A stretch of DNA of 60,657 nucleotides, counting the filler, from Nemertoderma westbladi (Eukaryota; Animalia; Xenacoelomorpha): NCBI GenBank assembly GCA_032718475.1. It is 3 parts of 3 records of this genome, joined end to end, with 100 filler letters (N's around TTAATTAATTAA, not from the genome) between each part and the next. Parts side by side here need not be neighbours in the genome. Positions count along the whole stretch, not along the records: positions 20,219 to 47,990 come from JAUCBJ010004715.1; 2 more parts are not named here. One strand, given 5' to 3'. The notes under the pieces are model-generated. The model searched no databases. It had not been told where the DNA came from and saw only the letters and a list, made by a program, of their open reading frames with translations. Each line of letters opens with the position of its first letter. The stretch's first letter is position 1. Shown here in pieces: positions 5,691 to 39,743 of the stretch. Position numbers and translations under genes: made by a program.

Positions 5691-5762
5691 AAAAGAGTCC
5701 ATTTCATACATGGATGGACACTGAATGTTCACATTAGTAGGCTACTACTGTATATGGACACC

Positions 5763-7075
5763 GAAAAGCCACCGCCAATTTGGAATAAAAGTCAACTAAA
5801 GCCTCTCCCCAAGAAAGGAGACCTCGGTATACCAACAAACTATCGTGGGATCTGTCTGCTTGTGGTGGCTGCCAAAATATACAATAAAATGATTCTATAT
5901 AGGATTAGGCCTCACATAGAGAAACTACTGCGTAAGAGCCAAAACGGATTTCGACCAAATAGATCAACAATAGCTCAGATACTTGCGATACGGAAACTGA
6001 TAGACGGAATTGTCAAATATTCTCCCCGCCATCCTGACATTTGTGGACTTCAAGAAAGTATTCGACTCCATCCATAGATTTAAAATTCTGGAAATCCTAA
6101 GAGCTTACGTAGGCCTAATACCAGAAGTAATTGTCGCTGGCACAAGAGTTCTTCTGAAAAATAATGAGTTCTTCTTAATCCTGGCTGGTGACTGCAAGGT
6201 GACACATTGGTGCCATTACTAGTCGTAATTGTACTGAATTAGGGGCCTACGCAATACGCGGGCGGACGGCCACAAAGGGGGAAGATCTGGGATTCAGATT
6301 AAAAGATCGCAGAACTAGCAGATATCCGGCAACTACAGTCACAGACGCCGACTTTGCGGATGACATCGCCCTGCTCTCTAATACGCTAGCAGATGCACAG
6401 CTTCTACTAAATAAAGTGGAGAGGGCTGCTAAGGAGGTTGGATTGCATATAAAGGCAACTAAGACCGAATTCATGACCTTTAATGTTGATGGAAACTTGA
6501 CAACCATTGATAATAATCAACTAAGGAAGGTCGACGACTTCCAGTACCTTGGATCATGGATAGAGAGTAGCAAAAAAGACATAGAAGTTAGGAAAGCAAA
6601 GGCTTGGGTAGCTCTATGAAAAATGGATACCATCTGTAAATCAGACCTTTCCAGGCACCTGAAGACTAAGTTCTTTCGAGCCACAGTGGAAAGTGTACTT
6701 TTATATCGGTGTGAGACCTGGACACTGACTAAATCAATTGAACAACGAATTGATGGTTGTTACACGAGACTACGAAGGGCAGCCCTAAACATCAGCTATA
6801 GACAACACATGCAACCACTCTCCGTAAACGCTTAGAGAAGTAAACATGAGGACATACCAGATCTAATTTTCTGACAAACCAAGCTCAAGCAAGCTGTAGC
6901 TCTGGACGACCGGTTATGACATACAGTAGGCCTACAGTATATACTGCAGGCCAACTTGAAAGGGATACTGGACTTGAGAGAAACGAAATTACGCCAATCT
7001 TCCCGATTGGGTGGATCTCATTTCCACTGTCCGAGGTCGCTCGACCTTCTTTAGTAGTAGAAGTAGTCTAGTAGT
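5763..7075 (+). mobile_element. 5'-truncated, frameshifted RTE-like LINE (reverse transcriptase to 3' end)
   Basis: PLPKKGDL..NYRGICLL, QNGFRPNRST, FVDFKKVFDSIHR, DFADDIAL, DFQYLGSWI, FRATVESVLLY; ends in a (TAG)n-like tail. Confidence 0.92.
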
Positions 7076-15209: not shown

Positions 15210-18200
15210 ACGCGTACACAATATCTAACCTGGAGAACCAACACCCCCCGACGCGTACACAATATCTAACGAGAACCAACACCCCCCGACGCGTACACAA
15301 TATCTAACGAGAACCAACACCCCCCGACGCGTACACAATATCTAACGAGAACCAACACCCCCCGACGCGTACACAATATCTAACGAGAACCAACACCCCC
15401 GACGCGTACACAATATCTAACCTGGGGAACCAACACACCCCGACGCGTATACAATATCTAACGAGAACCAACACCCCCCGACGCGTACACAATATCTAAC
15501 CTGGAGAACCAACACCCCACGACGCGTACACAATATCTAACGAGAACCAACACCCCCCGACGCGTACACAATATCTAACCTGGAGAACCAACACCCCCCG
15601 ACGCGTACACAATATCTAACGAGAACCAACACCCCACGACGCGTACACAATATCTAACGAGAACCAACACCCCCCGACGCGTACACAATATCTAACCTGG
15701 AGAACCAACACCCCCCGACGCGTACACAATATCTAACCTGGAGAACCAACACCCCCCCCGACGCGTACACAATATCTAACGAGAACCAACACCCCCCGAC
15801 GCGTACACAATATCTAACCTGGGGAACCAACACCCCCCGACGCGTACACAATATCTAACCTGGAGAACCAACACCCCCCGACGCGTACACAATATCTAAC
15901 GAGAACCAACACCCCCCGACGCGTACACAATATCTAACCTGGAGAACCAACACCCCCCGACGCGTACACAATATCTAACCTGGGGAACCAACACACCCCG
16001 ACGCGTACACAATATCTAACCTGGAGAACCAACACCCCCCGACGCGTACACAATATCTAACCTGGAGAACCAACACCCCCCGACGCGTACACAATATCTA
16101 ACCTGGAGAACCAACACCCCCCGACGCGTACACAATATCTAACCTGGAGAACCAACACCCCCCGACGCGTACACAATATCTAACGAGAACCAACACCCCC
16201 CGACGCGTACACAATATCTAACGAGAACCAACACCCCCCGACGAGTACACAATATCTAACGAGAACCAACACCCCCCCGACGCGTACACAATATCTAACC
16301 TGGAGAACCAACACCCCCCGACGCGTACACAATATCTAACGAGAACCAACACCCCCCGACGCGTACACAATATCTAACGAGAACCAACACCCCCCGACGA
16401 GTACACAATATCTAACCTGGAGAACCAACACCCCCCGACGCGTACACAATATCTAACCTGGAGAACCAACACCCCCCGACGCGTACACAATATCTAACGA
16501 GAACCAACACCCCCCGACGCGTACACAATATCTAACCTGGAGAACCAACACCCCCCGACGCGTACACAATATCTAACCTGGAGAACCAACACCCCCCGAC
16601 GCGTACACAATATCTAACCTGGAGAACCAACACCCCCCGACGCGTACACAATATCTAACCTGGAGAACCAACACCCCCCGACGCGTACACAATATCTAAC
16701 GAGAACCAACACCCCCCGACGAGTACACAATATCTAACCTGGAGAACCAACACCCCCCGACGCGTACACAATATCTAACCTGGAGAACCAACACCCCCCG
16801 ACGCGTACACAATATCTAACCTGGAGAACCAACACCCACCGACGCGTACACAATATCTAACGAGAACCAACACCCCCCCGACGCGTACACAATATCTAAC
16901 GAGAACCAACACCCCCCGACGCGTACACAATATCTAACCTGGAGAACCAACACCCCCCGACGAGTACACAATATCTAACCTGGAGAACCAACACCCCCCG
17001 ACGCGTACACAATATCTAACCTGGAGAACCAACACCCCCCGACGCGTACACAATATCTAACCTGGAGAACCAACACCCCCCGACGCGTACACAATATCTA
17101 ACGAGAACCAACACCCCCCGACGCATACACAATATCTAACCTGGAGAACCAACACCCCCCGACGCGTACACAATATCTAACCTGGAGAACCAACACCCCC
17201 CGACGCGTACACAATATCTAACCTGGAGAACCAACACCCCCCCGACGCGTACACAATATCTAACGAGAACCAACACCCCCCGACGCGTACACAATATCTA
17301 ACCTGGAGAACCAACACCCCCCAACGCGTACACAATATCTAACGAGAACCAACACCCCCCCGACGCGTACACAATATCTAACGAGAACCAACACCCCCCG
17401 ACGCGTACACAATATCTAACCTGGAGAACCAACACCCCCCGACGCGTACACAATATCTAACGAGAACCAACACCCCCCCGACGCGTACACAATATCTAAC
17501 CTGGAGAACCAACACCCCCCGACGCGTACACAATATCTAACGAGAACCAACACCCCCCGACGCATACACAATATCTAACCTGGAGAACCAACACCCCCCC
17601 GACGCGTACACAATATCTAACCTGGAGAACCAACACCCCCCGACGCGTACACAATATCTAACGAGAACCAACACCCCCCGACGCGTACACAATATCTAAC
17701 CTGGAGAACCAACACCCCCCGACGCGTACACAATATCTAACCTGGAGAACCAACACCCCCCGACGCGTACACAATATCTAACGAGAACCAACATCCCCCC
17801 GACGCGTACACAATATCTAACCTGGAGAACCAACACCCCCCGACGCGTACACAATATCTAACCTGGAGAACCAACACCCCCCGACGCGTACACAATATCT
17901 AACCTGGAGAACCAACACCCCCCGACGCGTACACAATATCTAACGAGAACCAACACCCCCCGACGCGTACACAATATCTAACCTGGAGAACCAACACCCC
18001 CCGACGCGTACACAATATCTAACCTGGGGAACCAACACCCCCCGACGCGTACACAATATCTAACGAGAACCAACACCCCCCGACGCGTACACAATATCTA
18101 ACCTGGGGAACCAACACCCCCCGACGCGTACACAATATCTAACGAGAACCAACATCCCCCCGACGCGTACACAATATCTAACCTGGAGAACCAACACCCC

Positions 18201-20118
18201 CGACGCGTACACAATATCTAACCTGGAGAACCAACACCCCCCGACGCGTACACAATATCTAACGAGAACCAACATCCCCCCGACGCGTACACAATATCTA
18301 ACCTGGAGAACCAACACCCCCCGACGCGTACACAATATCTAACCTGGAGAACCAACACCCCCCGACGCGTACACAATATCTAACCTGGAGAACCAACACT
18401 CCCCGACGCGTACACAATATCTAACCTGGGGAACCAACACCCCCCGACGCGTACACAATATCTAACGAGAACCAACACCCCCCGACGCGTACACAATATC
18501 TAACGAGAACCAACATCCCCCGACGCGTACACAATATCTAACCTGGAGAACCAACACTCCCCGACGCGTACACAATATCTAACCTGGGGAACCAACACCC
18601 CCCGACGCGTACACAATATCTAACGAGAACCAACACCCCCCGACGCGTACACAATATCTAACGAGAACCAACATCCCCCCGACGCGTACACAATATCTAA
18701 CCTGGAGAACCAACACCCCCCGACGCGTACACAATATCTAACCTGGAGAACCAACACCCCCCGACGCGTACACAATATCTAACCTGGAGAACCAACACTC
18801 CCCGACGCGTACACAATATCTAACGAGAACCAACACCCCCCGACGCGTACACAATATCTAACCTGGAGAACCAACACCCCCCGACGCGTACACAATATCT
18901 AACGAGAACCAACACCCCCCGACGCGTACACAATATCTAACCTGGAGAACCAACACTCCCCGACGCGTACACAATATCTAACCTGGGGAACCAACACCCC
19001 CCGACGCGTACACAATATCTAACGAGAACCAACACCCCCCGACGCGTACACAATATCTAACGAGAACCAACATCCCCCGACGCGTACACAATATCTAACC
19101 TGGAGAACCAACACCCCCCGACGCGTACACAATATCTAACCTGGAGAACCAACACCCCCCGACGCGTACACAATATCTAACCTGGAGAACCAACACCCCC
19201 TGACGCGTACACAATATCTAACCTGGGGAACCAACACCCCCCGACGCGTACACAATATCTAACGAGAACCAACATCCCCCCGACGCGTACACAATATCTA
19301 ACCTGGAGAACCAACACCCCCCTGACGCGTACACAATATCTAACCTGGGGAACCAACACCCCCCCGACGGCGTACACAATATCTAACGAGAACCAACACC
19401 CCCCGACGCGTACACAATATCTAACGAGAACCAACACCCCCCGACGCGTACACAATATCTAACCTGGGGAACCAACACCCCCCGACGCGTACACAATATC
19501 TAACGAGAACCAACATCCCCCCGACGCGTACACAATATCTAACGAGAACCAACACCCCCCGACGCGTACACAATATCTAACCTGGAGAACCAACACCCCC
19601 TGACGCGTACACAATATCTAACCTGGGGAACCAACACCCCCCGACGCGTACACAATATCTAACGAGAACCAACACCCCCCGACGCGTACACAATATCTAA
19701 CCTGGAGAACCAACACCCCCCGACGCGTACACAATATCTAACCTGGAGAACCAACACCCCCCCGACGCGTACACAATATCTAACGAGAACCAACACCCCC
19801 CGACGCGTACACAATATCTAACCTGGAGACCAACACCCCCGACGCGTACACAATATCTAACGAGAACCAACACCCCCCGACGCGTACACAATATCTAACG
19901 AGAACCAACACCCCCCGACGCGTACACAATATCTAACCTGGAGAACCAACACCCCCCGACGCGTACACAATATCTAACGAGAACCAACACCCCCCGACGC
20001 CGTACACAATATCTAACCTGGAGAACCAACACCCCCCGACGCGTACACAATATCTAACCTGAGAACCAACACCCCCCGACGCGTACACAATATCTAACCT
20101 GAGAACCAACACCCCCGA
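15210..20118. repeat. 38/41-bp minisatellite array containing a minus-strand donor-like junction
   Basis: Unit aacctggagaaccaacaccccccgacgcgtacacaatatct; reverse complement reads ttctccag|gttaga; runs into the gap. Confidence 0.97.
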
Positions 20119-20218
20119 NNNNNNNNNNNNNNNNNNNNNNNNNNNNNNNNNNNNNNNNNNNNTTAATTAATTAANNNNNNNNNNNNNNNNNNNNNNNNNN
20201 NNNNNNNNNNNNNNNNNN
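20119..20218. other. Scaffold gap with TTAATTAATTAA linker
   Basis: N runs flanking an artificial six-frame-stop spacer. Confidence 0.98.
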
Positions 20219-21435
20219 GTGTGTAGGGGGGATAGGTGGAAGACGGACACTAAACTAACGCAATCAATCCTCCTTACCTGAGGCACCCAAAACCAGTCCG
20301 TGTGTAGGGGGATAGGTGGAAGACGGACACTAAAGTAACGCAATCAATCCTCCTTACCTGAGGCACCCAAAACCAGTCCGTGTGTAGGGGGGATAGGTGG
20401 AAGACGGACACTAAACTAACGCAATCAATCCTCCTTACCTGAGGCACCCAAAACCAGTCCGTGTGTAGGGGGATAGGTGGAAGACGGACACTAAACTAAC
20501 GCAATCAATCCTCCTTACCTGAGGCACCCAAAACCAGTCCGTGTGTAGGGGGATAGGTGGAAGACGGACACTAAACTAACGCAATCAATCCTCCTTACCT
20601 GAGGCACCCAAAACCAGTCCGTGTGTAGGGGGATAGGTGGAAGACGGACACTAAACTAACGCAATCAATCCTCCTTACCTGAGGCACCCAAAACCAGTCC
20701 GTGTGTAGGGGGATAGGTGGAAGACGGACACTAAACTAACGCAATCAATCCTCCTTACCTGAGGCACCCAAAACCAGTCCGTGTGTAGGGGGATAGGTGG
20801 AAGACGGACACTAAACTAACGCAATCAATCCTCCTTACCTGAGGCACCCAAAACCAGTCCGTGTGTAGGGGGATAGGTGGAAGACGGACACTAAACTAAC
20901 GCAATCAATCCTCCTTACCTGAGGCACCCAAAACCAGTCCGTGTGTAGGGGGATAGGTGGAAGACGGACACTAAACTAACGCAATCAATCCTCCTTACCT
21001 GAGGCACCCAAAACCAGTCCGTGTGTAGGGGGGATAGGTGGAAGACGGACACTAAACTAACGCAATCAATCCTCCTTACCTGAGGCACCCAAAACCAGTC
21101 CGTGTGTAGGGGGATAGGTGGAAGACGGACACTAAACTAACGCAATCAATCCTCCTTACCTGAGGCACCCAAAACCAGTCCGTGTGTAGGGGGGATAGGT
21201 GGAAGACGGACACTAAACTAACGCAATCAATCCTCCTTACCTGAGGCACCCAAAACCAGTCCGTGTGTAGGGGGGATAGGTGGAAGACGGACACTAAACT
21301 AACGCAATCAATCCTCCTTACCTGAGGCACCCAAAACCAGTCCGTGTGTAGGGGGGATAGGTGGAAGACGGACACTAAACTAACGCAATCAATCCTCCTT
21401 ACCTGAGGCACCCAAAACCAGTCCGTGTGTAGGGG
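20219..21435. repeat. 80/81-bp tandem array, about 15 copies, of Sushi exon 3 end plus donor
   Basis: Unit reverse complement ...ggactggttttgggtgcctcag|gtaagg...; the rightmost copy is continuous with exon 21403-21498. Confidence 0.97.
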
Positions 21436-21498
21436 GAGTAGGTGGATCCTCGCAAGCCAGTTCGCATTGAAATTCTGGATGTTGATTCCATTTTCCGC
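21403..21498 (-). CDS. Sushi gene exon 3 (GKWNQHPEFQCELACEDPPTPPTHGLVLGAS)
   Basis: ttaacag| acceptor, cag|gtaagg donor, phase 1-1; completes Sushi 1 (W..C) and starts Sushi 2 (C..PP...HG). Confidence 0.85.
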
Positions 21499-21981
21499 CT
21501 GTTAATAAAACATTTAATTAATCCTCCAGAGGCCACTGATATTATTAATTAATTTTCTCTACAAGTTTAAATTATTTTAGTTTTCTGTGAGACTCAAGAC
21601 CGTCTTCGCTAGGCCATCTTCTGGCACGTTTTATTTTGTTTTAGTTCTAGAATATTTTTTATTGATAATGATAACGTTCTGCTGTTTTTACGCATATTTT
21701 TCGGTACTTTAACTTTTCTATTAGATTCAAGTTATTTTATTTTCACTACTTCTAAGGGACACCAAACCGCAAGGAACTCATATTTCAGTTTATATAATTG
21801 TAATAATACAGTTAGTTAAATTGGGAACAGGATATTTTTACACATAAATAAGAAATATTTCATTGTAAATTTCAGTGCTCCGATATTATTATAATATAAA
21901 CTATAATATACTGAAATAAATTGCAATTAATAAACATAATCCTATTAATAATAATTATAAACTAGTTTATTGTGCGAATTA

Positions 21982-23049
21982 TTATGTATCGGCTTGTTGC
22001 GAGCGAATATAGGAAATAATTTGGTTTCCAGAGTAACAGTAAGTAGCGAAAGTCGCCGCTGATAGACTCCCAGAGGCGACCCACGAGTACCACAAGAGCC
22101 AGTGGTGGGGGGAACCGAACAGTGGTGCCGCCAGTGAGAAGGCTAGAGTCCCCATCACAACACACGTAGTGCATTTACTCAACAGACTCGGCTCCAAAAC
22201 CATTCCTCTAGATCTCATAGAGAACATTTCCCTCAAGGAGACAGAGTTACCTAAACTCTGATACCGAATGTAAACCGCTCCCAAAATAACCGCCAAGTCT
22301 TTGAGTAACAGAACTGCAGCCAGTTCTATAGGAATCTTTTGAGTTATTACTAAAGCCAAGGCCAAAAATCCAACAAAGGTTTTATCCGCGATTGGGTCTA
22401 GTATCGCTCCAAGATTACTCCGTTGCGATGGAAACCTACGGGCTATCGCTCCGTCTAGGAGGTCCGTTGCCGCGGTGATGGAACACAACCACAGAGCCTC
22501 CATGAACCCCTGGTTCACTATAAAGTAAAGGATAAAGGGGGAGGCGGCGATCCGAAGTATACAGAGGATGTTCGGGACGGTTACAACGTTGTCTCCAATC
22601 CGCTCCCCTACCCGAATATCGGGAACGTTGTCCCCAATCCGCTCCCCAACCCGAATATCGGGAACGTTGTCCCCAATCCGCTCCCCAACCCGAATATCGG
22701 GAACGTTGTCCCCAATCCGCTCCCCAACCCGAATATCGGGAACGTTGTCCCCAATCCGCTCCCCAACCCGAATATCGACTGTATCATCTAGGGAGTTGAT
22801 TATTCGCCGTCGATCTTTCGGGATTCTCGCTGGTATCTGATCACTTTTACGCCGTTCGCAACGGTGAAACGAGATCCAAACATAATTTCCTAGACGCGTT
22901 TCTCTTTTGTTAGATATATGGTTTCGGTTTATACGGTGAAAGTTCGAAGTGTGATAGTGAGGAGTTACTAGGTGATACTTGGGGGGAGGGCGTCTGAGAC
23001 CGCCAGTCCCACTTCTACATAGTAACGATTGGTATGGAAGCGGCAACAT
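21982..23049 (-). CDS. CRLS1: Cardiolipin synthase (CDP-alcohol phosphatidyltransferase), intronless
   Basis: TVPNILCILRI, CDP-alcohol motif DLLDGAIARR..SNLGAILDPIADK, PSLLSK; basic N-terminal transit-like peptide; AATAAA just after the stop. Confidence 0.9.
   Translation of the reverse strand: MLPLPYQSLLCRSGTGGLRRPPPKYHLVTPHYHTSNFHRINRNHISNKRETRLGNYVWISFHRCERRKSDQIPARIPKDRRRIINSLDDTVDIRVGERIGDNVPDIRVGERIGDNVPDIRVGERIGDNVPDIRVGERIGDNVPDIRVGERIGDNVVTVPNILCILRIAASPFILYFIVNQGFMEALWLCSITAATDLLDGAIARRFPSQRSNLGAILDPIADKTFVGFLALALVITQKIPIELAAVLLLKDLAVILGAVYIRYQSLGNSVSLREMFSMRSRGMVLEPSLLSKCTTCVVMGTLAFSLAAPLFGSPHHWLLWYSWVASGSLSAATFATYCYSGNQIISYIRSQQADT
22585..22778. repeat. In-frame 39-bp repeat x5 inside CRLS1 (DIRVGERIGDNVP)
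   Basis: Five near-identical units preserve the reading frame. Confidence 0.95.
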
Positions 23050-23920
23050 GATATCTTCAGCTTTTATCCCGGACCAATCAACTTGCCTCCAATTACTACT
23101 TATTGAGTTACCGCGGTTGCTACAGCAACAAGTAGGCTTACCTTACCCGGTTACCGCCGATGGTAAAGATAGAGAACGAGGTAAAAATTACCAAATGCAG
23201 GAAACAATTCAGTTTGCAGTTCTGCACTTCTGCAGTTGTTACTGTTGTGTTGTAAGTGCCCCACTACTGCCCCGCTATGTCATGACTGACTGTATGAGCA
23301 GAACAACAACTGAATCTGGTCCATCATGCCTCTTTCAAATATCCCGCCTGCCTTGATTAACTTTACCATGTTGGATAATTATTATTGATACGTCATGAAG
23401 TCTACATTTTTTTAAAATTATCATGGAGATGGAGAGAGAACAAATATTTAACTTTGGTAACTAATGTAACACGGATTTCTATAATAATGTCCATGTGGTT
23501 GATTAACGGGAAAAATAGAGTGCTACAAATGGGCAAAGTCGGGATATTGTGACAGACTTCTGGACCACGCCCGCAATAACCGACAGGTATTGGACCTCAG
23601 CACTGAACCCATTCCGTCACTCACTGACTGGATACTCAATTCACGGCCACCACCTGTACTGCTCACAAAGCTCTTTCCATGAACCAAGGGAAACTTCCAT
23701 TTGCCGCATTTGCTTTCAACCGTCAACCCCATCCCGTTACCATCTTCTGAAGTGACCATGTGTAACCATCCCAGTGCCCAAGTCCCATGTTCCTGTGCAC
23801 ACATATTAAATCGTCCCTGCTCTTCTGTTTTCCTCCCAGTTTAATTAATTGATTGTATATTGTGTTAATGTGCCTATTTGGTTTAAATATTATTAAATCA
23901 ATAATTCCCTACTGTCTAAC

Positions 23921-24100
23921 CTGTAGTGCACTGGACAATGATTGCATTTTGACTAGCAGTTGAAACATATCCGTCCAGACAAGCATAGACTAACTTCTCC
24001 CCGATGGCATAGATGTTGGAATGCTTTGCGATAACAGATAGTATATGGGCTCTCGGGTGTGGTAGAGCTGGGGGATCTGTGCAATATTCATCACACTTTC
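23921..24100 (-). CDS. Sushi gene exon 2 (KCDEYCTDPPALPH...YAIGEKLVYACLDGY...VQCTT)
   Basis: Sushi/CCP pattern C..PP, Y..G....Y.C..GY, C; aatttag| and CAG|gttaga; 180 nt, phase 1-1. Confidence 0.88.
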
Positions 24101-24140
24101 CTAAATTAATAACAAATTAAAATAATCGTATTAATTATAT

Positions 24141-24625
24141 GGCCCATGTGAAGAATACCAGACTTTCTGCCGTTATATTTCACTTTGCAGTTACCCCCAT
24201 GTGAAGAATACCAGACTTTCTGCCGTTATATTTCACTTTGCAGTTACCCCCATGTGAAGAATACCAGACTTTCTGCCGTTATATTTCACTTTGCAGTTAC
24301 CCCCATGTGAAGAATACCAGACTTTCTGCCGTTATATTTCACTTTGCAGTTACCCCCATGTGAAGAATACCAGACTTTCTGCCGTTATATTTCACTTTGC
24401 AGTTACCCCCATGTGAAGAATACCAGGTTTTCACCAAAACCACAGGTTACAGAAGGGCTGAATCTAACCAAAACAATAAACGAATTGTACAGGTTATAAG
24501 ACAGAAATAAGCGCTATAAAACACTAATATACACACAATTAAAAAAAAAATAAAAAATCTTCATATATAAAATTCCAATAAAAAGTCGACCGAAAAGTGA
24601 AATCCTGGTATTCTTCACATGGGCG
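24141..24625. mobile_element. Non-autonomous TIR element with 8-bp TSD (Merlin-like) and tandemly amplified 56-bp left end
   Basis: ggcccatgtgaagaatacca ... tggtattcttcacatgggcg; aattatat at 24133-24140 and 24626-24633. Confidence 0.85.
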
Positions 24626-24729
24626 AATTATATCCATCGCTATTTTGTTAACAATTTTATGTACCATGCACTCAACTCAAATATTAAATGCATAACAAAA
24701 AATCGTACCCATATCACAGTATGTCTTGT

Positions 24730-24926
24730 AGGAGTGTGTCACTGAACTTACACCGTATCCTGGAATATGGTGTCTTTATTCAAGTACCTGTCCACCCCCC
24801 CCCCCCCCCCCCCCCCCCATTTGTCGACATTGCGCCATTGCAAAGCTGGCCCTGCAAGGATTCCAAGAAATTTATCACAATATGAATTTCGTTGAAAATT
24901 ACCTGAGATATGAGCGTTCAAATGTT
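24730..24926 (+). mobile_element. Fragment related to the 8267-9179 foldback family
   Basis: aaagctgg..tgaatttcgttgaaaa..ctgagatatgagcgttc.aatgttgc matches 8537-8621. Confidence 0.65.
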
Positions 24927-25503
24927 GCTACTTGTAGGACTCTGGCCCAACTAACTTACCCATGGCACAGAGGGCTACTTGTAGGACTCTGGCCCAACTA
25001 ACTTACCCATGGCACAGAGGGCTACTTGTAGGACTCTGGCCCAACTAACTTACCCATGGCACAGAGGGCTACTTGTAGGACTCTGGCCCAACTAACTTAC
25101 TCATGGCACAGAGGGCTACTTGTAGGACTCTGGCCCAACTAACTTACCCATGGCACAGAGGGCTACTTGTAGGACTCTGGCCCAACTAACTTACCCATGG
25201 CACAGAGGGCTACTTGTAGGACTCTGGCCCAACTAACTTACCCATGGCACAGAGGGCTACTTGTAGGACTCTGGCCCAACTAACTTACTCATGGCACAGA
25301 GGGCTACTTGTAGGACTCTGGCCCAACTAACTTACCCATGGCACAGAGGGCTACTTGTAGGACTCTGGCCCAACTAACTTACCCATGGCACAGAGGGCTA
25401 CTTGTAGGACTCTGGCCCAACTAACTTACCCATGGCACAGAGGGCTACTTGTAGGACTCTGGCCCATCTAACTTACCCATGGCACAGAGGGCTACTTGTA
25501 GGA
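24927..25503. repeat. 47-bp tandem array, about 12 copies, of Sushi exon 1 end plus donor
   Basis: Unit reverse complement ccctctgtgccatgg|gtaagttagttgggccagagtcctacaagtag. Confidence 0.97.
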
Positions 25504-25864
25504 GTGTATCGGCTGAATTATATATGGTATCATCACTCCGTTTATTTTTGTTTTCACTTCTGACCTTCTCTTTATTTTCGTCTTTATATATTGCCAGTAT
25601 TGAATTTAACTTTTCACTTGTGTCTCTAGACCGCCTGGTTTGATTTTTATATATTTCCAAGACTGAGTTTAATTTTTGTCTGATGTTCTTATCATAAAGT
25701 TTTACGTCTTTACTTGTGACGCCCATTGGGTTGGTTTTTTCCCCTGTTTCTATTTTGACATCCTTCGCATTCTCCGATGTATCAGCTAGTTCACTGTCGC
25801 TATGAATAGCTTGTGTTGCCTCTATTGTTACCAAAATCGTTAGAATTATAGTAATCGTATCCAT
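25477..25864 (-). CDS. Sushi gene first coding exon: signal peptide plus pro-region
   Basis: MDTITIILTILVTIEATQA hydrophobic leader, RRSR and KR sites; ends ATGG|gtaagt in phase 1, joining exon 2 as CAM-G-KCDEYC. Confidence 0.82.
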
Positions 25865-25983
25865 TATTATTGAAATAGTCTTGAAATTGTTATTGAACAA
25901 TGTTATTATGAATTTTGGATTTAATTATAATATATAATTCGATAATATTTTACTGTTGTTATAGAAATAATTGGTAGTGATTT

Positions 25984-26643
25984 TTATTTCTATATTTTAT
26001 TCTTCCACGTGTCCACACATAACTAACATAGTGCTTTGGTTGGCCCATATTATTTCTATGTTTTATTCTTCCACGTGTCCACACATAACTAACATAGTGT
26101 CTTTGGTTGGCCCATATTATTTCTATGTTTTATTCTTCCACGTGTCCACACATAACTAACATAGTGCTTTGGTTGACCCATATTATTTCTATGTTTTATT
26201 CTTCCACGTGTCCGCTAACTAACACAGTGTGCTTTGGTTGGCCCATATTATTTCTATGTTTTATTCTTCCACGTGTCCACACATAACTAACATAGTGCTT
26301 TGGTTGACCCATATTATTTCTATGTTTTATTCTTCCACGTGTCCACACATAACTAACATAGTGCTTTGGTTGACCCATATTATTTCTATGTTTTATTCTT
26401 CCACGTGTCCACACATAACTAACACAGTGTGCTTTGGTTGACCCATATTATTTCTATGTTTTATTCTTCCACGTGTCCACACATAACTAACATAGTGCTT
26501 TGGTTGACCCATATTATTTCTATGTTTTATTCTTCCACGTGTCCACACATAACTAACATAGTGCTTTGGTTGACCCATATTATTTCTATGTTTTATTCTT
26601 CCACGTGTCCACACATAACTAACATAGTGCTTTGGTTGGCCCA
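25984..26643. repeat. ~66-bp tandem array, about 10 copies
   Basis: Unit ttttattcttccacgtgtccacacataactaacatagtgctttggttgacccatattatttctatg; reverse complement contains ctat|gttagt. Confidence 0.95.
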
Positions 26644-27045
26644 CCCGTATGTCGTCTATTTTCACATCATTCTGCGTTTTAATTGCTGTTGCTGTTGAAA
26701 TATTTATTATGGTTTTCAATATTTAGCTACAAGCTTTTAAAAATCGTTGTCGTTGTCTTTATTGCATCGCTGTTCCTTGGTACCAAGAGAAGGTTGCAGT
26801 AATAGCGAAAAACCACAACGAAATAGCTGAGCGCTAGGAACTGTTGTAGGTGTTACTTTAATGTCCGTCTAAGACTGTTGGTATACTTTTTAAATTTTCC
26901 TAAAAACTAATAATAATTTATATAATTACCCTTCCAACACTTCCTTTCAACGGTTTTCTATACAAACTAATAACAATATATTACTACGTATATTAATAGC
27001 ATACTCATACACGCACAAATATAATATAAATGTATTTATTATTGT

Positions 27046-27440
27046 GGCACATGTGTGGTATCCCATACTTTATGCTGTTTGGAGTTTACCTACATGTGAA
27101 GAATACCAGATTTCACTAAAAACCCAGGCTACTGAAGGGCTTAATCTAACCAAAACAGTAAACGAATTATTGTATCTGTACGATCAGTGTTGAGCGAAGT
27201 GGCGTGTGATTGGTTGTGGTTAGGTTGGGCTCAGCGTCATTGAAGAGAGCATTGAAAGCCATGCAGGACAATGACAACGAGCCATTGCAGACAAGAATTG
27301 GAGCTGGCCTTGTTGATTCCGCTCCAGGATTTATAATGGAGGTGGAGGCCACCAGTTTTAATAACAAACATACTTTAAATTAAGGAGTTGGTATTTACAA
27401 GGTGACTCTTAATTGTTAAATGGTATTCTTCACCTGGGCG
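27046..27440. mobile_element. Diverged copy of the cccatgtgaagaatacca TIR family
   Basis: catgtgaagaataccag...tggtattcttcacctgggcg; flanks attattgt / gttattgt. Confidence 0.7.
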
Positions 27441-28622
27441 GTTATTGTTGTGTTTATTTGTAAATTTTAATGATAAAAAATGGTCTACCGTATTTGTTTA
27501 AAAATTATTTCGTCACATAAATTATTCAAATACATATATACTTATTAAATAGTGTTTAGAACTCTTAACGAATACATTGAATGTTATTGTTCCACTGAGA
27601 GTGAAATGAATAATTATGAATACTGAAACATAAATGGGTCAAAATCGATTCAGTTCTCAAAACTTCGTACAGTCATTGAACTTTAAACAAGCAACATATA
27701 CAATTTAATTTAATATTAATACGGTGGTACACACTACACATACATTGTTCATAAATATAAGGAAAGGTAATATTATTACAAACAGTATAATTATATTATG
27801 TCATCTTATCCGGGGCCTGGAGATATTCTCGTACGAAGTTATCACTAACTTAGTAACAATGAACTTCTAGAACACTTGTTGCGTAATATCCATTAGTTAT
27901 GGCAATTAGTGCTTTGCGAAGTGTACGATTGTTTGCCGTACAGGTGGTGTAGCAACTTGATAATTGCAATCCTTTAAAATGGGTACGAATTCACCAATAC
28001 ACCTAAACAATAAACATTACATAATAAAACACTCCGGCCGAACGCCGAAAAGTTGACATAATATAACCAAATTTATTATATCATTATTGTATGAAAAAGG
28101 TACCAATCCTAGCACCGGTACCAATCTCTGACAATAAATATATTCACCATTAAAGACCGATTAATAACCTCACTCGCTGCGCTCGATCTCATTCCTAAAT
28201 GCATTACAACAGATCCAAGGATTGCTTTATTTGTAATAAACGTTTTACATTTAACAGTTAACTACGTATAACGTACGTATTGAAAATATAATTATTTCAC
28301 GTGTGGAGAATATAATTATTATCCCGCCCAAGTTTCCAAAGGCATCGAAATTATATTTATAAATTTTTCCACCAAGAGTGGCTATAAAATTCAGAAACAA
28401 CTGGAAAAAACGCTAAATATTTGTATGAATTGTCCGCAATCATCCCAGTGAGACAAAGTTAATGAAATAGATACACTGGTATCGCAGCTTTGTATGAAAG
28501 TATTCATTATAATAACAAAGTCGATGTCCATAAGTAGCTCAAATCGAAACCTGATTTACGTATTATTGCGGTACTGTCCTGTCTGTCGTTCTATAAGGGA
28601 CCGACGACAAGTACTGGTACTA

Positions 28623-29747
28623 CTAAATGTTATCGCTCTCATCCAATACCGACGGGTTAGACATCCTCAAGGCATCTTTATTCCTCGTTAAGGTGTCATC
28701 TTTAGATGCTGCGGTGATGCTCATATGTCTGGTCAATGTACCAAACACCTTCTTTGCAGCCCCTTTCTTCTTCTTTTCAACTTCTCCTTCTACTGTCAGC
28801 GATCCCATCATGGAATCCACCGTTTTCTCCAACTCTTTGCTTCTCGGGTTGTATGCCACCTTGTGGTATTCGTTATTCAACCCCATATCGTTATCTATGA
28901 TCTCCTTTAAGTTATTCAGCAGTGTCACTGTATTAGTATCAACTTCTGCTTCTTGTATAACTATGTCTATGTTATTGAGAACAAATTTGCTATCATCCAC
29001 AGCTTTTTTCAAGTGGGTCTCCATTCCTTTAATGCGTTCATCGTACATCTGCTGTTTGTTATCAAAGAAAGCTCTCAAATCTTCGAGAATATGTTCTTTC
29101 TTAGCCCGTAGAGCCATAACTCCTTCGTTGTATTCTTGTTCAATAAGGTAACATAGACTTTCTACAATCTTCGTTTTTTCTTCTTCATTCTCAGCCCTGA
29201 ATTCTTTGACATCTCTTGTCAGACATTGCAAGGTCTCTAGACAGCGCTCCATATTGTTGGCGCATTCTCCCATACGAACAACCATCTTTAACTTATTGTG
29301 TTCTTTGTGGTTGGCCTCCACCAAACAATCACTACACAAAGCCATCTTACACGGAACACATATATACTTTAGCTGCTCATCTTTGTGGACGGGGCATCTT
29401 TCGTGAGCCTTCTCGCTGGTGGTGACCGCTACTGGAGTCTGGGAAGAGTTGCTAATCGGGCGGGAATTGTTGAGGCGATTGGAATCGATGGACCTGTTGA
29501 ATGCGGAACTCAGTGAGTCGTTGATGTCGTGGTCTGGTAGTTCGTCCAATAGGGATGCGATTGTGTTGCTGTTACATATCCTACAAGTCAGTTCGCAGTG
29601 GGTCTTGGATTCCGGGTTGTTTTGTGTGTCTCGCAGACAAGACTTACAGAATATGTGTCCGCAATCGAGAATCTTTGGGTGACGATAGACTTCTTGACAA
29701 ACTCTACATGTCAACTCTTGTATTAAGTCGCCTTTGCCTTTATCCAT
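28623..29747 (-). CDS. TRIM/RBCC E3 ubiquitin ligase (RING, B-box2, coiled coil, no C-terminal domain), intronless
   Basis: CRVC..CGHIFCKSC..CRIC RING; CPVHKDEQLKYICVPCKMALCSDC..HKEH B-box; helical C-terminal half. Confidence 0.93.
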   Translation of the reverse strand: MDKGKGDLIQELTCRVCQEVYRHPKILDCGHIFCKSCLRDTQNNPESKTHCELTCRICNSNTIASLLDELPDHDINDSLSSAFNRSIDSNRLNNSRPISNSSQTPVAVTTSEKAHERCPVHKDEQLKYICVPCKMALCSDCLVEANHKEHNKLKMVVRMGECANNMERCLETLQCLTRDVKEFRAENEEEKTKIVESLCYLIEQEYNEGVMALRAKKEHILEDLRAFFDNKQQMYDERIKGMETHLKKAVDDSKFVLNNIDIVIQEAEVDTNTVTLLNNLKEIIDNDMGLNNEYHKVAYNPRSKELEKTVDSMMGSLTVEGEVEKKKKGAAKKVFGTLTRHMSITAASKDDTLTRNKDALRMSNPSVLDESDNI

Positions 29748-30806
29748 AACTAATAATGCTGTAATGCTTCAGTAATAATTAGGCCTACTAATAATTCAAA
29801 ATTAATATTAATTAATAAATCATAGTAAAAGTATTTATTAATAAATGTTAATACGGTGATTTGTTTCAGTTTAGTACCAGCAATACAACAAAAGTAGAAA
29901 ATCTGATAGATATTCTTAGGTACAAATCAGTACAAATAGGCAGATAGACCTATTTATGGGCTAGGCCTAGAAAGGCGAGAGAGTTGTGTAGAATGTTAAA
30001 CTTAAATTATTGTACATATATATTGTACATATTGTATTGTACATATATTGTATATTTCTGATATGTAATATTAAAATGAATTCTAATATAAACAATAATA
30101 ATATCCGGAACAATCGACAAAGTGTGTTCTCATGTCGCTATATTAACCTTACCGCCCTATCCAATCAATAGTAGGGTTGTCTGGCTCTGTCAGTCCATGT
30201 AGATTCATCAGCTTATATTGATGGACTTAGTGGCAGCTCTCAGCTACATAATATACCGACATTATCAGCCCATGTTGTGAGTCTCTCTTCTCTGTCTATA
30301 GAGTTGTAGACCCATGGTGGTAGACAGTTCGGACTAGACAGCGGGAAACCAACTTGTTAGTGTGACCTGAAGGAAATATATTTCGGTAGATTTCTCTGGA
30401 GATTATTCCAACCAATTACTGTTATAGGGAGGTGAATGATTCCTATAAGCACTTGTTTTTCATTAACTTCTGTTTACTATAGTAACGGGAAGGCCTGGAT
30501 TAGTTGAATGTATAATCTGCGTTGGTTTGTCAGTGGGAAGCAGTTGTAGACATGTTTCTTTGGATACAATACTCAATAATCTATCCTTAGACTTAAACCC
30601 GGCGCACACTAGAGATACAAGATGCACGATGCATGATAAATTATTTGAAATATACATTAATATAATCAAAGTATAATATATAAAATAAAATACGATGCAT
30701 CTTGCATCTCTAGTGCCTTACTATATTATTATTATTGGGCGTAGACGCTGTGCCGACAGAGGTGCCGACCCAGGTGCGTGGATGATAGAAATAAAATAAA
30801 ATATTG

Positions 30807-30985
30807 GGCCCATGTGAAGAATGCCAGACTTTCTGCCGTTATATTTCACTTTGCAGTTACCCCCATGTGAAGAATACCAGGTTTTCACCAAAAGCACAGG
30901 TTACAGAAGGGCTGAATCTAACCAAAACAATAAACGAATTAGTTTATGTTCAGGTTAAAAGACAGAAATAAGCGCTATAAAACAC
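30807..30985 (+). mobile_element. Left-end fragment of the cccatgtgaagaatacca TIR family
   Basis: Near-identical to 24141-24525 but with a single 56-bp unit. Confidence 0.8.
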
Positions 30986-31337
30986 TTAGTAAAGATAAAT
31001 AAAAAAATCCCAGCAAGCCAAGGAAACAAGTAAATGTTTTGCCCCGTTTTGTTGCACTGTTTTGCACAGTTTTTATAAAATATTTAGCGCCGTTTGCACC
31101 ATTGTTTTGCGCCGTCTGTTCCAATAATTTTACCATTATTGGTTGTTATTATCGTTGAGTTGTTATATACCGTCCACATCCCCCCCCCCCCCCCCCCCCC
31201 CCCTCTCCAATTTATTTTTCGCTAGTGAGTTTTTTATTACGTTGACTTATAATTCATTATTATTCTATTGTAAAATCCGATTATAAATATTTTAATCAAA
31301 TTCCAAAACTTATTAATAAATCTATTTTTCTCTACAG

Positions 31338-31559
31338 GGAAGCGGTTGACTCGGCGTATCTTTACAGCAACCTAACGGCTATCCTTGATGACCTATTGGA
31401 AGGGTTTGAATCCAAGTCACCCGGAATTAAGTTGGAAACAATTCATTTCGTTAAGCGGTGCCTCCAGCGGGCAACACCGGCATCGCTAAAGAAGGACATA
31501 CTGAAACCGTTAGGGGGCGCTCTAACAAAACGCTTAGGTGAACAGCTACCAGAAATTCG
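31338..31559 (+). CDS. CKAP5: ch-TOG/XMAP215 internal exon (TOG2 HEAT repeats)
   Basis: EAVDSAY..KSPGIKLET..LKKDILKPLGGAL..QLPEIR resembles recalled CKAP5 EAIDAIF..KNPTIKQQT..LPKSLLKPF..SAPEVR; ctacag| and CG|gtgagt. Confidence 0.9.
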
Positions 31560-31677
31560 GTGAGTTTGGAAGAACAGCAACCTGAAATTTTGTAAGTTTG
31601 GAAGAACAGTAACCAGAAATAAAAATATAGTAAGATCTGATTGAGAGTGATTTGGTTATGTCGTCATTGTTTTTTAG

Positions 31678-31855
31678 TGATGCGGCATCAGAAGGCCTTG
31701 CAACTATGTGGAAAGTGATGGGAGACAAACCGATGAACCAATTCCTAAACGATCTCGATAAATTGAAGATGGATAAAATCCGAGAGTTTTATGAAACAGT
31801 GGAGCTCATTGGTAAAGGGAAACCTGGTGGGACCGTGGACGCTAAAACTACCAAG
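31678..31855 (+). CDS. CKAP5: ch-TOG internal exon (end of TOG2)
   Basis: DAASEGLATMWKVMGDKPMNQFLNDLDKLKMDKIRE; tttttag| and AAG|gtaggg; phases consistent. Confidence 0.92.
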
Positions 31856-32426
31856 GTAGGGGGACCCCTTAGTTGTCGTAAAAGCCACAGACGCCAAGAA
31901 AGTAAGACTAATTTTCTTAAAGGTGGCTTTCCCTTTTATAGGCATTTCAATTGTACACACTTGTGTCTTACTCAGTCTTACTTAGGTTTTTCAGACAGTA
32001 GCCTTGGACATAAAGACCAATACAACTTGTAAACAGAATATTTTGATCAGAAGTGTCTAAAATGTCCATTTTTTTTATTTTGGGCTGATATTTTTTTTTA
32101 ATTATCGTACATAACCGACATAGAAATTTCAAAATTCTGTCTACAGGTTTTCTTGGTCAATATATGAAGACAATTCACTGAAAGTTTCAAACAAATTTAT
32201 TACAAAATGACGGAGGAGTCGCATTTAGAGTGTCTGTTTGTCAGGAAACACATTTTAGTGGGAAAATAATGATAATTTGATATTTTGTGTAAACTTGCCA
32301 TATTAAAATTACATTATTAGGACTCGCCATTGACCCCCCCCCCCCCCCCCCCCCCCCCTTTAGTACACTTTATTTGATCTTTTTCTTTATGGAATTATTT
32401 TCTAACTATTTATTTTATTTCCTCAG

Positions 32427-32547
32427 CCAGACGCGCTTAGTAAACCGACGACTGGTGGTCCCGCCGCCGCTCCGCCTTGGAAGAAGAAATCGACAGTCCA
32501 GGGAGGTAAACCGACGGCTGGTAGTGGAGGGCAGGAAGGCAAAAAAG
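32427..32547 (+). CDS. CKAP5: ch-TOG internal exon (basic TOG2-TOG3 linker)
   Basis: cctcag|PDALSKPTTGGPAAAPPWKKK..GQEGKK G|gtgagt; phase 0-1 links the flanking exons. Confidence 0.82.
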
Positions 32548-35500
32548 GTGAGTGAGAGATCGGTAGTGGAGGGAGGTAAACCAACGGCTGGTAGTGGAGG
32601 GCAGGAAGGCAAAAAAGGTGAGTGAGAGATCGGTAGTGGAGGGCAGGAAGGCAAAAAAGGTGAGTGAGAGATCGGTAGTGGAGGGAGGTAAACCAACGGC
32701 TGGTAGTGGAGGACAGGAAGGCAAAAAAGGTGAGTGAGAGATCGGTAGTGGAGGGCAGGAAGGCAAAAAAGGTGAGTGAGAGATCGGTAGTGGAGGGGGG
32801 TAAACCAACGGCTGATAGTGGAGGGCAGGGAGGCAAAAAAGGTGAGTGAGAGATCGGTAGTGGAGGACAGGAAGGCAAAAAAGGTGAGTGAGAGATCGGT
32901 AGTGGAGGGAGGTAAACCAACGGCTGATAGTGGAGGGCAGGGAGGCAAAAAAGGTGAGTGAGAGATCGGTAGTGGAGGGCAGGAAGGCAAAAAAGGTGAG
33001 TGAGAGATCGGTAGTGGAGGGCAGGAAGGCAAAAAATGTGAGTGAGAGATCGGTAGTGGAGGGCAGGAAGGCAAAAAAGGTGAGTGAGAGATCGGTAGTG
33101 GAGGGCAGGAAGGCAAAAAAAGGTGAGTGAGAGATCGGTAGTGGAGGGGGGTAAACCAACGGCTGATAGTGGAGGGCAGGAAGGCAAAAAAGGTGAGTGA
33201 GAGATCGGTAGTGGAGGACAGGAAGGCCAAAAAGGTGAGTGAGAGATCGGTAGTGGAGGGAGGTAAACCAACGGCTGGTAGTGGAGGGCAGGAAGGCAAA
33301 AAAGGTGAGTGAGAGATCGGTAGTGGAGGGCTGGAAGGCAAAAAAGGTGAGTGAGAAATCGGTAGTGGAGGGCAGGAAGGCAAAAAAGGTGAGTGAGAGA
33401 TCGGTAGTGGAGGGAGGTAAACCAACGGCTGGTAGTGGAGGGCAGGAAGGCAAAAAAGGTGAGTGAGAGATCGGAAGTGGAGGGAGGTAAACCAACGGCT
33501 GGTAGTGGAGGGCAGGAAGGCAAAAAAGGTGAGTGAGAGATCGGTAGTGGAGGGAGGTTAACCAACGGCTGGTAGTGGAGGGCAGGAAGGCAAAAAAGGT
33601 GAGTGAGAGATCGGTAGTGGAGGGCAGGAAGGCAAAAAAGGTGAGTGAGAGATCGGTAGTGGAGGGAGGTAAACCAACGGCTGGTAGTGGAGGACAGGAA
33701 GGCAAAAAAGGTGAGTGAGAGATCGGTAGTGGAGGGCAGGAAGGCAAAAAAGGTGAGTGAGAGATCGGTAGTGGAGGGGGGTAAACCAACGGCTGATAGT
33801 GGAGGGCAGGGAGGCAAAAAAGGTGAGTGAGAGATCGGTAGTGGAGGGCAGGAAGGCAAAAAAGGTGAGTGAGAGATCGGTAGTGGAGGGCAGGAAGGCA
33901 AAAAAGGTGAGTGAGAGATCGGTAGTGGAGGGCAGGAAGGCAAAAAAGGTGAGTGAGAGATCGGTAGTGGAGGGCAGGAAGGCAAAAAAGGTGAGTGAGA
34001 GATCGGTAGTGGAGGGGGGTAAACCAACGGCTGATAGTGGAGGGCAGGAAGGCAAAAAAGGTGAGTGAGAGATCGGTAGTGGAGGACAGGAAGGCCAAAA
34101 AGGTGAGTGAGAGATCGGTAGTGGAGGGAGGTAAACCAACGGCTGGTAGTGGAGGGCAGGAAGGCAAAAAATGTGAGTGAGAGATCGGTAGTGGAGGGCT
34201 GGAAGGCAAAAAAGGTGAGTGAGAAATCGGTAGTGGAGGGCAGGAAGGCAAAAAAGGTGAGTGAGAGATCGGTAGTGGAGGGAGGTAAACCAACGGCTGG
34301 TAGTGGAGGGCAGGAAGGCAAAAAAGGTGAGTGAGAGATCGGTAGTGGAGGGCAGGAAGGCAAAAAAGGTGAGTGAGAGATCGGTAGTGGAGGGCAGGAA
34401 GGCAACAAAGGTGAGTGAGAGATCGGTAGTGGAGGTTAGGAAGGCCAAAAAAGGTGAGTGAGAGATCGGTAGTGGAGGGCAGGAAGGAAAAAGGTGAGTG
34501 AGAGATCGGTAGTGGAGGGCAGGAAGGCAACAAAGGTGAGTGAGAGATCGGTAGTGGAGGTTAGGAAGGGCAAAAAAGGTGAGTGAGAGATCGGTAGTGG
34601 AGGGCAGGAAGGCAAAAAAGGTGAGTGAGAGATCGGTAGTGGAGGGCAGGAAGGCAAAAAAAGGTGAGTGAGAGATCGGTAGTGGAGGGCAGGAAGGCAA
34701 AAAAGGTGAGTGAGAGATCGGTAGTGGAGGGCAGGAAGGCAAAAAAGGTGAGTGAGAGATCGGTAGTGGAGGGAGGTAAACCAACGGTTGGTAGTGGAGG
34801 GCAGGAAGGCAAAAAAGGTGAGTGAGAGATCGGTAGTGGAGGACAGGAAGGCAAAAAAGGTGAGTGAGAGATCGGTAGTGGAGGGAGGTAAACCAACGGC
34901 TGGTAGTGGAGGGCAGGAAGGCAAAAAAGGTGAGTGAGAGATCGGTAGTGGAGGACAGGAAGGCAAAAAAGGTGAGTGAGAGATCGGTAGTGGAGGGAGG
35001 TAAACCAACGGCTGGTAGTGGAGGACAGGAAGGCCAAAAAGGTGAGTGAGAGATCGGTATAGTGGAGGGAGGTAAACCAACGGCTGGTAGTGGAGGGCAG
35101 GAAGGCAAAAAAGGTGAGTGAGAGATCGGTAGTGGAGGGCAGGAAGGCAACAAAGGTGAGTGAGAGATCGGTAGTGGAGGGCAGGAAGGCAAAAAAGGTG
35201 AGTGAGAGATCGGTAGTGGAGGGCAGGAAGGCAACAAAGGTGAGTGAGAGATCGGTAGTGGAGGGCAGGAAGGCAAAAAAGGTGAGTGAGAGATCGGTAG
35301 TGGAGGGCAGGAAGGCAACAAAGGTGAGTGAGAGATCGGTAGTGGAGGGCAGGAAGGCAAAAAAAGGTGAGTGAGAGATCGGTAGTGGAGGGAGGTAAAC
35401 CAACGGCTGGTAGTGGAGGGCTGGAAGGCAAAAAAGGTGAGTGAGAGATCGGTAGTGGAGGGCAGGAAGGCAAAAAAGGTGAGTGAGAGATCGGTAGTGG

Positions 35501-38500: not shown

Positions 38501-39642
38501 GGTAAACCAACGGCTGGTAGTGGAGGGCAGGAAGGCAAAAAAGGTGAGTGAGAGATCGGTAGTGGAGGGCAGGAAGGCAACAAAGGTGAGTGAGAGATCG
38601 GTAGTGGAGGGAGGTAAACCAACGGCTGGTAGTGGAGGGCTGGAAGGCAAAAAAGGTGAGTGAGAGATCAGTAGTGGAGGGCAGGAAGGCAAAAAAGGTG
38701 AGTGAGAGATCGGTAGTGGAGGGCAGGAAGGCAAAAAAGGTGAGTGAGAGATCGGTAGTGGAGGGAGGTAAACCAACGGCTGGTAGTGGAGGGCTGGAAG
38801 GCAAAAAAGGTGAGTGAGAGATCAGTAGTGGAGGGCAGGAAGGCAAAAAAAGTGAGTGAGAGATCGGTAGTAGAGGGAGGTAAACCAACGGCTGGTAGTG
38901 GAGGGCTGGAAGGCAAAAAAGGTGAGTGAGAGATCGGTAGTGGAGGGCAGGAAGGCAAAAAAGGTGAGTGAGAGATCGGTAGTGGAGGGAGGTAAACCAA
39001 CGGCTGGTAGTGGAGGGCAGGAAGGCAAAAAAGGTGAGTGAGAGATCGGTAGTGGAGGGCAGGAAGGCAAAAAAGGTGAGTGAGAGATCGGTAGTGGATG
39101 GAGGTAAACCAACGGCTGGTAGTGGAGGGCTGGAATGCAAAAAAGGTGAGTGAGAGATCGGTAGTGGAGGACAGGAAGGCAACAAAGGTGAGTGAGAGAT
39201 CGGTAGTGGAGGGCAGGAAGGCAAAAAGGTGAGTGAGAGATCGGTAGTGGAGGGCAGGAAGGCAAAAAAGGTGAGTGAGAGATCGGTAGTGGAGGGAGGT
39301 AAACCAACGGCTGGTAGTGGAGGGCAGGAAGGCAAAAAAGGTGAGTGAGAGATCGGTAGTGGAGGGCAGGAAGGCAAAAAAGGTGAGTGAGAGATCGGTA
39401 GTGGAGGGAGGTAAACCAACGGCTGGTAGTGGAGGGCTGGAAGGCAAAAAAGGTGAGTGAGAGATCGGTAGTGGGGGGGCAGGAAGGCAAAAAAGGTGAG
39501 TGAGAGATCGGTAGTGGGGGGCAGGAAGGCAAAAAAGGTGAGTGAGAGATCGGTAGTGGAGGGCAGGAAGGCAAAAAAGGTGAGTGAGAGATCGGTAGTG
39601 GAGGGCAGGAAGGCAAAAAGGTGAGTGAGAGATCGGTAGTGG
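32500..39642. repeat. 7.1-kb array of 42-bp and 28-bp units derived from the ch-TOG exon end plus donor
   Basis: Units ggtagtggagggcaggaaggcaaaaaag|gtgagtgagagatc and ggtagtggagggaggtaaaccaacggct. Confidence 0.98.
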
Positions 39643-39743
39643 TAGAAGTAGATCGATAACACATTTGATGTGATATAATCATATAGGGGTCGTTGTAAGA
39701 TCCGCTTCTTTCTGTTTAAAGAAAATTATTATATTAATTTTAG

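Follow-up and report, generated by a model that had tools for sequence, protein, structure and literature searches.

The region analysed here holds an intact cardiolipin synthase gene of animal type (CRLS1), with a complete catalytic motif. It falls within a predicted intron of a second gene, which is read from the same strand and has one of its Sushi domains split by that intron. The sequence comes from Nemertoderma westbladi (assembly GCA_032718475.1), and by the window we mean the whole stretch of 60,657 nucleotides, in which three parts are joined by filler. As far as can be judged from the sequence the layout is real, and this type of gene within a gene is already well known in animals. 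We consider it fairly likely that CRLS1 is an ordinary nested gene, with its own intronic promoter and poly(A) signal, over which the host transcript is spliced.

An intact cardiolipin synthase in one exon

The features of the nested gene are as follows.

21982..23049, minus strand: single-exon coding sequence of CRLS1 (CMP-forming cardiolipin synthase), 355 aa plus stop, with the first in-frame ATG at 23049
22780..23049, minus strand: putative mitochondrial targeting presequence, about 90 N-terminal aa, by residue composition
22585..22777, minus strand: in-frame tandem repeat of 39 bp x 4.9 (13-aa unit), found by TRF, 98% matches

The minus-strand frame is open from stop to stop over 386 codons (21982-23142, ORF scan), and the next methionine after the first is residue 183, within the catalytic core. 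When the stretch was shuffled 1,000 times the longest open frame had a median of 87 aa and a maximum of 210 aa. The product matches the Pfam family CDP-OH_P_transf (PF01066; E 4e-24), and both this match and the alignment contain the CDP-alcohol phosphotransferase signature motif; residues D196, D199, G200, A203, R204, G214, D218 and D222 are invariant in an alignment of 14 rows. The core is a continuous ORF that aligns end to end with its homologues, so that the coding sequence is intronless, a call that covers the CDS and leaves room for an intron in the 5' UTR.

Several lines of evidence place the protein with eukaryotic CRLS1 and not with bacterial PgsA/Cls. A homology search that included the repeat gave two weak matches, and one restricted to residues 152-340 gave 47, among which the best named ones are octocoral and fluke cardiolipin synthases (two and three sequences, respectively; 35-40% identity); identity to the top matches is at most 41%. 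In the ESM Atlas, residues 150-355 fell into top clusters named “cardiolipin synthase (CMP-forming)” (score 0.95, 220/256 features, Eukaryota 100%). In a quick tree of 50 rows CRLS1 joins five named animal sequences, with an SH-aLRT value of 93, below the mark of 95, and on a long branch (1.93). Bacterial gene transfer, considered as a cause of the intronlessness, was rejected on the Atlas clusters and the tree. Moreover, GC3 of CRLS1 (0.51-0.53) is in line with that of the neighboring ch-TOG (0.48-0.56) and TRIM (0.50) genes, and CRLS1 thus looks native rather than like a recent foreign insert. A PDB sequence search with the core returned zero matches at E 0.001, and the 227 pattern matches of a metagenome scan with the core included no relative. 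Of 588 loci in an alignment scan, 80 were retained; their identities of 28-43% are too low for synteny.

The N-terminus is likely a mitochondrial targeting presequence, as judged from its composition: the first 50 aa are basic and acid-poor (8 R/K, 1 D/E), and homologues of eukaryote type carry an N-terminal extension of roughly like length when the repeat is left out. The 39-bp repeat follows the presequence and precedes the first conserved motif; it keeps the frame without a stop, and its 13-aa unit is missing from all 13 aligned homologues. We rejected an intron hidden in the repeat, as it offers neither a T-rich acceptor nor a donor that fits the consensus. The K-x-x-T-x-x-Q motif of the C-terminal part has valine in place of the glutamine that 12 of the 13 homologues have.

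The valine change and the long branch could point to relaxed selection on a spare copy, that is, a retrocopy or duplicate, with the working CRLS1 elsewhere in the genome. The in-frame expansion of the repeat would fit such a reading, as would the lack of introns in CRLS1 while ch-TOG of the same genome has them, and the window holds decayed reverse transcriptase (RVT_1) fragments. These and an ISXO2-like transposase fragment lie at 5637-6616, 50214-52977 and 59814-60275 (Pfam). However, 355 codons are open with every catalytic residue retained, the repeat keeps the frame, and ch-TOG is comparably divergent, with at most 50% identity to any match; from this similarity the long branch of CRLS1 is probably a genome-wide trait. 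The 483-nt 3' flank of CRLS1 was found to contain no A-tract (the longest run of A is 6), and around the gene there was no target-site duplication, with only short, chance-like direct repeats. We therefore regard the spare copy as distinctly unlikely. The same two absences leave recent retroposition unsupported, and to that extent an earlier suggestion of retroposition does not stand; such marks decay, though, and their absence speaks only against a recent origin. Old retroposition, intron loss, or capture through exon gain by the host may each account for the nested gene, and the sequence does not separate them.

The Sushi host gene and its predicted intron

The predicted host gene runs on the same strand and comprises the following parts.

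25477..25864, minus strand: predicted Sushi gene exon 1, with ATG, a hydrophobic, signal-peptide-like start (judged by eye) and the phase-1 donor GTAAGT
23921..24100, minus strand: exon 2, 180 nt, with 3 of the 4 Cys of Sushi domain 1 (Pfam PF00084 positions 1-44 of 56)
21499..23920, minus strand: predicted host intron 2, 2,422 nt, GTTAGA...TAACAG, GT-AG, phase 1, splitting Sushi domain 1
21403..21498, minus strand: exon 3, the end of Sushi 1 and the start of Sushi 2, with AG at 21500-21499 and a GT donor directly next

Two lines of evidence support that these exons belong together. First, exon 2 is a recognizable but incomplete domain. Its Pfam match (E 2.2e-5, 25.2 bits) lies above the curated cut-off of 20.7, its PDB matches are CCP proteins, among them factor H and factor XIIIB, and it breaks off at domain position 44 with a GT directly next to it at 23920, where unspliced reading would meet a stop one codon on. 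Secondly, the missing end of the domain is found across the intron. The phase-1 donor of exon 2 was joined by script to each of the 1,164 downstream AGs on the same strand, and only the AG at 21499 brought in frame the sequence G-x-W...P..C, which we take from the consensus to be the end of a Sushi domain and which is the completing motif of exon 3. In favor of the junction, such a completion arose in 32 cases when the 2.6 kb were block-shuffled 2,000 times. The motif C-x-DPP occurs only twice when all six frames of the window are read, once where exon 2 begins and once in exon 3. Exon 3 alone had no match in Pfam, among CCP structures or in the Atlas. Exons 1 and 2 join in frame, and all three exons do so with canonical GT-AG ends and without a stop. 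The splice from 23920 to 21499 is accordingly predicted from domain continuity, for which the sequence evidence is strong.

The CRLS1 ORF (21982-23049) falls wholly within 21499-23920, between consecutive Sushi exons, and its coding sequence makes up 44% of the 2.4 kb intron. On these points the preliminary description holds: its coordinates for CRLS1, the Sushi exons and the AATAAA are correct when ORF, splice dinucleotides and motif are seen directly, its intron does split a Sushi domain, and its intronless CRLS1 is nested on the host's strand.

It could be argued that the nesting is apparent only, through a local misassembly or because the Sushi exons are dead or are not spliced, and that CRLS1 is an ordinary intergenic gene. 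Tandem arrays and the N gap at 20119-20218 do flank the region, and the remainder of the Sushi gene is untraceable beyond that gap. Against this stand the three exons joined in frame with canonical ends and no stop, and the stretch 21447-24142, which is gap-free and has the 193-bp coding repeat as its sole array; the whole of 20219-47990 has no N gap. A misjoin would in addition need to have dropped CRLS1 between the halves of one domain. We hold this explanation to be very unlikely and retain the predicted host intron.

Several introns of the window open with a tandem array whose units repeat the donor and the end of the preceding exon, at a high density per gene.

24927-25503: G/GTAAGT x10, 47-bp unit, at Sushi exon 1
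20219-21446: AG/GTAAGG x15, 80-bp unit, at Sushi exon 3
32500-39650: AG/GTGAGT x129, in ch-TOG
31540-31620: 32-bp unit x2.5, in a short ch-TOG intron

The same type of donor-copying array is described for intron 7 of human F7, where the first donor is used (PMC1557585). Two further arrays, at 15210-20116 and 41927-47990, carry the minus-strand donors AG/GTTAGA x74 and CA/GTGAGT x81, and both reach N gaps. Their source exons may have been lost in those gaps, and a 41-bp unit among them could be read as the end of a Gly-X-Y exon. The gaps themselves (20119-20218 and 47991-48090) consist of 44 N, TTAATTAATTAA and another 44 N, an artificial spacer across which contiguity is unproven.

Elsewhere in the window, a minus-strand ORF with a fibrinogen C-domain (226-1290, Pfam) has a strong acceptor at 1275 and may be a terminal exon or a single-exon gene. 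Three exon-like minus-strand ORFs without a convincing Pfam match (12674-12003, 11409-11008 and 10447-10037) may belong to a gene of their own or form the 3' end of the Sushi gene; they too would lie within the presumed ch-TOG intron discussed below.

Signals around the nested gene and its expression

The signals that bear on expression are listed here.

21966..21971, minus strand: candidate poly(A) signal AATAAA of CRLS1, 11 nt past the stop, seen directly
21741, 21663 and 21635, minus strand: other AATAAA downstream of CRLS1, seen directly
23141..23146, minus strand: 5'-splice-site-like pair GG/GTAAGG and AG/GTAAGC, some 95 nt ahead of the start codon of CRLS1
23501..23840, strand not assigned: GC-richer patch upstream of CRLS1, 49% GC vs 23-37% in the adjoining intron

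Four features suggest an independent unit, namely an ATG of its own, the presequence-like N-terminus, the AATAAA 11 nt past the stop, and the lack of a good acceptor near the ATG. The favored reading, an ordinary nested gene, would work as follows. The CRLS1 promoter would lie upstream of the ATG, in the roughly 800 nt that separate it from host exon 2, and the transcript would be cut at one of the AATAAA within 21971-21630. The host pre-mRNA would be spliced from 23920 to 21499 and so skip CRLS1, passing its poly(A) signal just as it would pass AATAAA elsewhere among its introns; in the host, as in other animals where this is known, intronic polyadenylation would face competition from splicing and U1, probably aided by narrower expression of the host. 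U1 shielding of intronic poly(A) signals is described in human, mouse and fly (PMC5499120). The CRLS1 protein would be imported into mitochondria and make cardiolipin from phosphatidylglycerol (PG) and CDP-DAG. Intronlessness suits nesting on the same strand because the inner gene then brings no splice sites of its own that need to be used.

The preliminary description was right that CRLS1 has its own AATAAA, at 21971-21966, yet the special problem it saw for the host transcript falls away. Four AATAAA in 483 bases (74% A+T) compare with a shuffle mean of 1.7 (P for at least four, 0.09), the chance of one within the first 40 nt past the stop is P 0.12, and Sushi intron 1 and a 118-nt ch-TOG intron contain one on the sense strand each. 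Since the motif is near chance density and also present in other introns, it poses no special obstacle.

The GC-richer patch may be a promoter region or a decayed element. One plus-strand frame in it runs for 113 codons, interrupted by a single TGA, and the frames tried gave no convincing Pfam match, also with the TGA read as X. The patch has no second copy within the window, and an Rfam search of 21400-31400 returned no match.

An alternative is that CRLS1 lacks a promoter and is derived from host pre-mRNA. It would then be spliced to Sushi exons 1-2 as an alternative last exon, or receive a spliced leader by trans-splicing at an acceptor ahead of its ATG. The shared strand and the position close to the host's 5' end fit with this, as does the fact that leader trans-splicing is known in ctenophores and glass sponges (PMC8527503, PMC10282587). 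To weigh acceptors we used a matrix built from the seven modelled acceptors of the window, which score 5.8-10.1 bits when left out one at a time; it is crude and mostly reads T/A richness, and the AG at 21910 scores 10.7, above the 7.5 (leave-one-out) of the chosen acceptor at 21499. The best of 54 AGs in the intron upstream of CRLS1 scores 5.4 bits, and weak acceptors at 23289 (5.2 bits) and 23460 (5.0) come only slightly below the weakest modelled value of 5.8. AGs at 23060 and 23054, directly ahead of the ATG, are in frame with the phase-1 donor, but these are purine-rich, the latter scoring -5.3, and a splice to 23289 would reach a stop within 8 codons. Nine AGs lie in the 150 nt around the ATG, and the best of them has 2.5 bits, so that the mark of trans-splicing, a strong unpaired 3' splice site upstream of the ATG, was not found in those 150 nt. 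By contrast, the TRIM and fibrinogen-domain ORFs have acceptors of 9.5 and 11.4 bits, both ahead of their frames, next to which CRLS1 looks the least spliced or trans-spliced. Furthermore, the signal-peptide-like start of host exon 1 would misroute a mitochondrial enzyme. The earlier proposal of expression through trans-splicing thus finds no footing in the acceptors near the ATG, and we regard a promoterless CRLS1 as unlikely.

A more elaborate scheme gives the donor-like pair a role. Here CRLS1 would be the animal's only cardiolipin synthase, with its output set by a position-dependent U1 switch. In host transcripts the sites at 23146/23141 would shield the CRLS1 poly(A) signal, and the Sushi intron would be completed; CRLS1 transcripts would start below these sites, or be cut from host pre-mRNA, and would then be polyadenylated. 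Were this true, a mitochondrial enzyme that is essential, and that sits inside two nested introns, would trade output directly with a secreted protein of complement type. One AGGTAAG anywhere in the intron was present in 20% of block shuffles, which makes the donor-like pair not significant, and we consider the switch highly improbable. The ordinary nested gene stays our preferred reading.

A probable surrounding ch-TOG gene and known nested genes

On the opposite strand the window contains exons of ch-TOG.

31338..31559, plus strand: internal exon of ch-TOG (CKAP5/Msps), the first that the window contains, from Msps residue 382 (tblastn E 6e-17)
about 31678-31900, 39744-39925 and 40038-40252, plus strand: further ch-TOG exons, by sequence match
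32427, plus strand: short ch-TOG linker exon, modelled from its acceptor
28623..29747, minus strand: intronless RING/B-box TRIM gene (Pfam RING and B-box; ORF check)

The four matched plus-strand exons match residues 382-687 of a bee Msps/ch-TOG protein. The exon at 31338 has an acceptor, and its ORF has no upstream in-frame ATG. Among 63 matches of this ch-TOG none exceeds 50% identity; the 8 that were looked up by name include tick, hemichordate, two bugs, beetle and sea cucumber. Profiles from 23 proteins were run without filters on 3,008 six-frame fragments of the window, a search that could overlook very short exons. The known exons scored 25.8-64.8 bits. Eight profile segments for residues 1-230 and 265-385 revealed no new exon, the best plus-strand score elsewhere being 7.9 bits, and seven segments for residues 680-1075 found no exon in the window. 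In these 60 kb ch-TOG is thus represented by residues 382-687 only, with nothing in the 31 kb upstream or the 20 kb downstream, a pattern that implies either a partial copy or introns of great length that are filled with other genes.

The absence of the first 381 residues from the window makes double nesting likely. TRIM, CRLS1 and the Sushi exons all fall within the gap-free 20219-47990 and are likely spanned by the ch-TOG intron upstream of 31338, and CRLS1 and the Sushi gene would then both lie inside an intron of the opposite strand. On the evidence of the exon positions we hold this to be quite likely, and a possibility that had been raised only conditionally has gained weight with residues 1-381 lying outside the window. 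The ch-TOG stretch may alternatively be a partial duplicate. If double nesting applies, TRIM is likely a second intronless gene in the same ch-TOG intron as CRLS1. It has a strong acceptor at 29787 (9.5 bits), 40 nt ahead of its ATG, which makes trans-splicing or a spliced 5' UTR more plausible for TRIM than for CRLS1.

The case leaves knowledge of nested genes unchanged. It is mildly special insofar as the inner gene is a housekeeping enzyme that fills much of a short intron; the global Crls1 knockout mouse dies at peri-implantation (PMC9601307). If our reading is true, the locus would offer a compact natural test case of a host transcript that passes both the start and the poly(A) site of a gene on its own strand. 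The locus also matters for annotation, because genes of this type can escape predictors that do not allow nesting (PMC10282587), and a core mitochondrial enzyme could then look lost.

Compared with eukaryotic CRLS1, the gene shares the D-G-x2-A-R...G-x3-D-x3-D motif, the insert of eukaryote type, the AAPL segment and the N-terminal extension; it stands apart in its single exon, the five-fold 13-aa repeat before the core, valine for glutamine, and identity of at most 41%. The matches listed in our literature search included no CRLS1 nested in an intron, and supplementary lists of nested genes could hold one.

Same-strand nesting, called unusual in the preliminary description, is in fact documented in Drosophila, a ctenophore and mammals (PMC5174743, PMC8527503, PMC11694760). 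The ctenophore Hormiphora californensis is reported to have 2,357 nested genes, of which 484 are doubly nested and many run in the direction of their host (PMC8527503), and in the glass sponge Aphrocallistes vastus 2,432 of 19,578 genes are nested, with 12,409 single-exon transcripts (PMC10282587). Both have spliced-leader trans-splicing, whereas CRLS1 here shows no good trans-splice acceptor. In mouse and human, same and opposite orientations are broadly similar in frequency, nested genes favor 5' introns, and premature polyadenylation of the host at nested genes is described; many of these genes are non-coding and lie in long introns, unlike CRLS1 (PMC11694760). In D. melanogaster 71.3% of nestings are on opposite strands, which leaves about 29% on the same strand, and “Russian doll” nestings, a gene in a gene in a gene, have been noted (PMC5174743). 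Inner genes in Drosophila tend to be tissue-specific and hosts broadly expressed, whereas in our case a housekeeping enzyme is the inner gene, and it is probably the host whose expression is narrower; the host intron is also short, 2.4 kb with 44% coding sequence. Among the same-strand inner genes of Drosophila 71.5% are intronless (PMC5174743), and CRLS1 resembles these nestings in being short, intronless and on the strand of its host.
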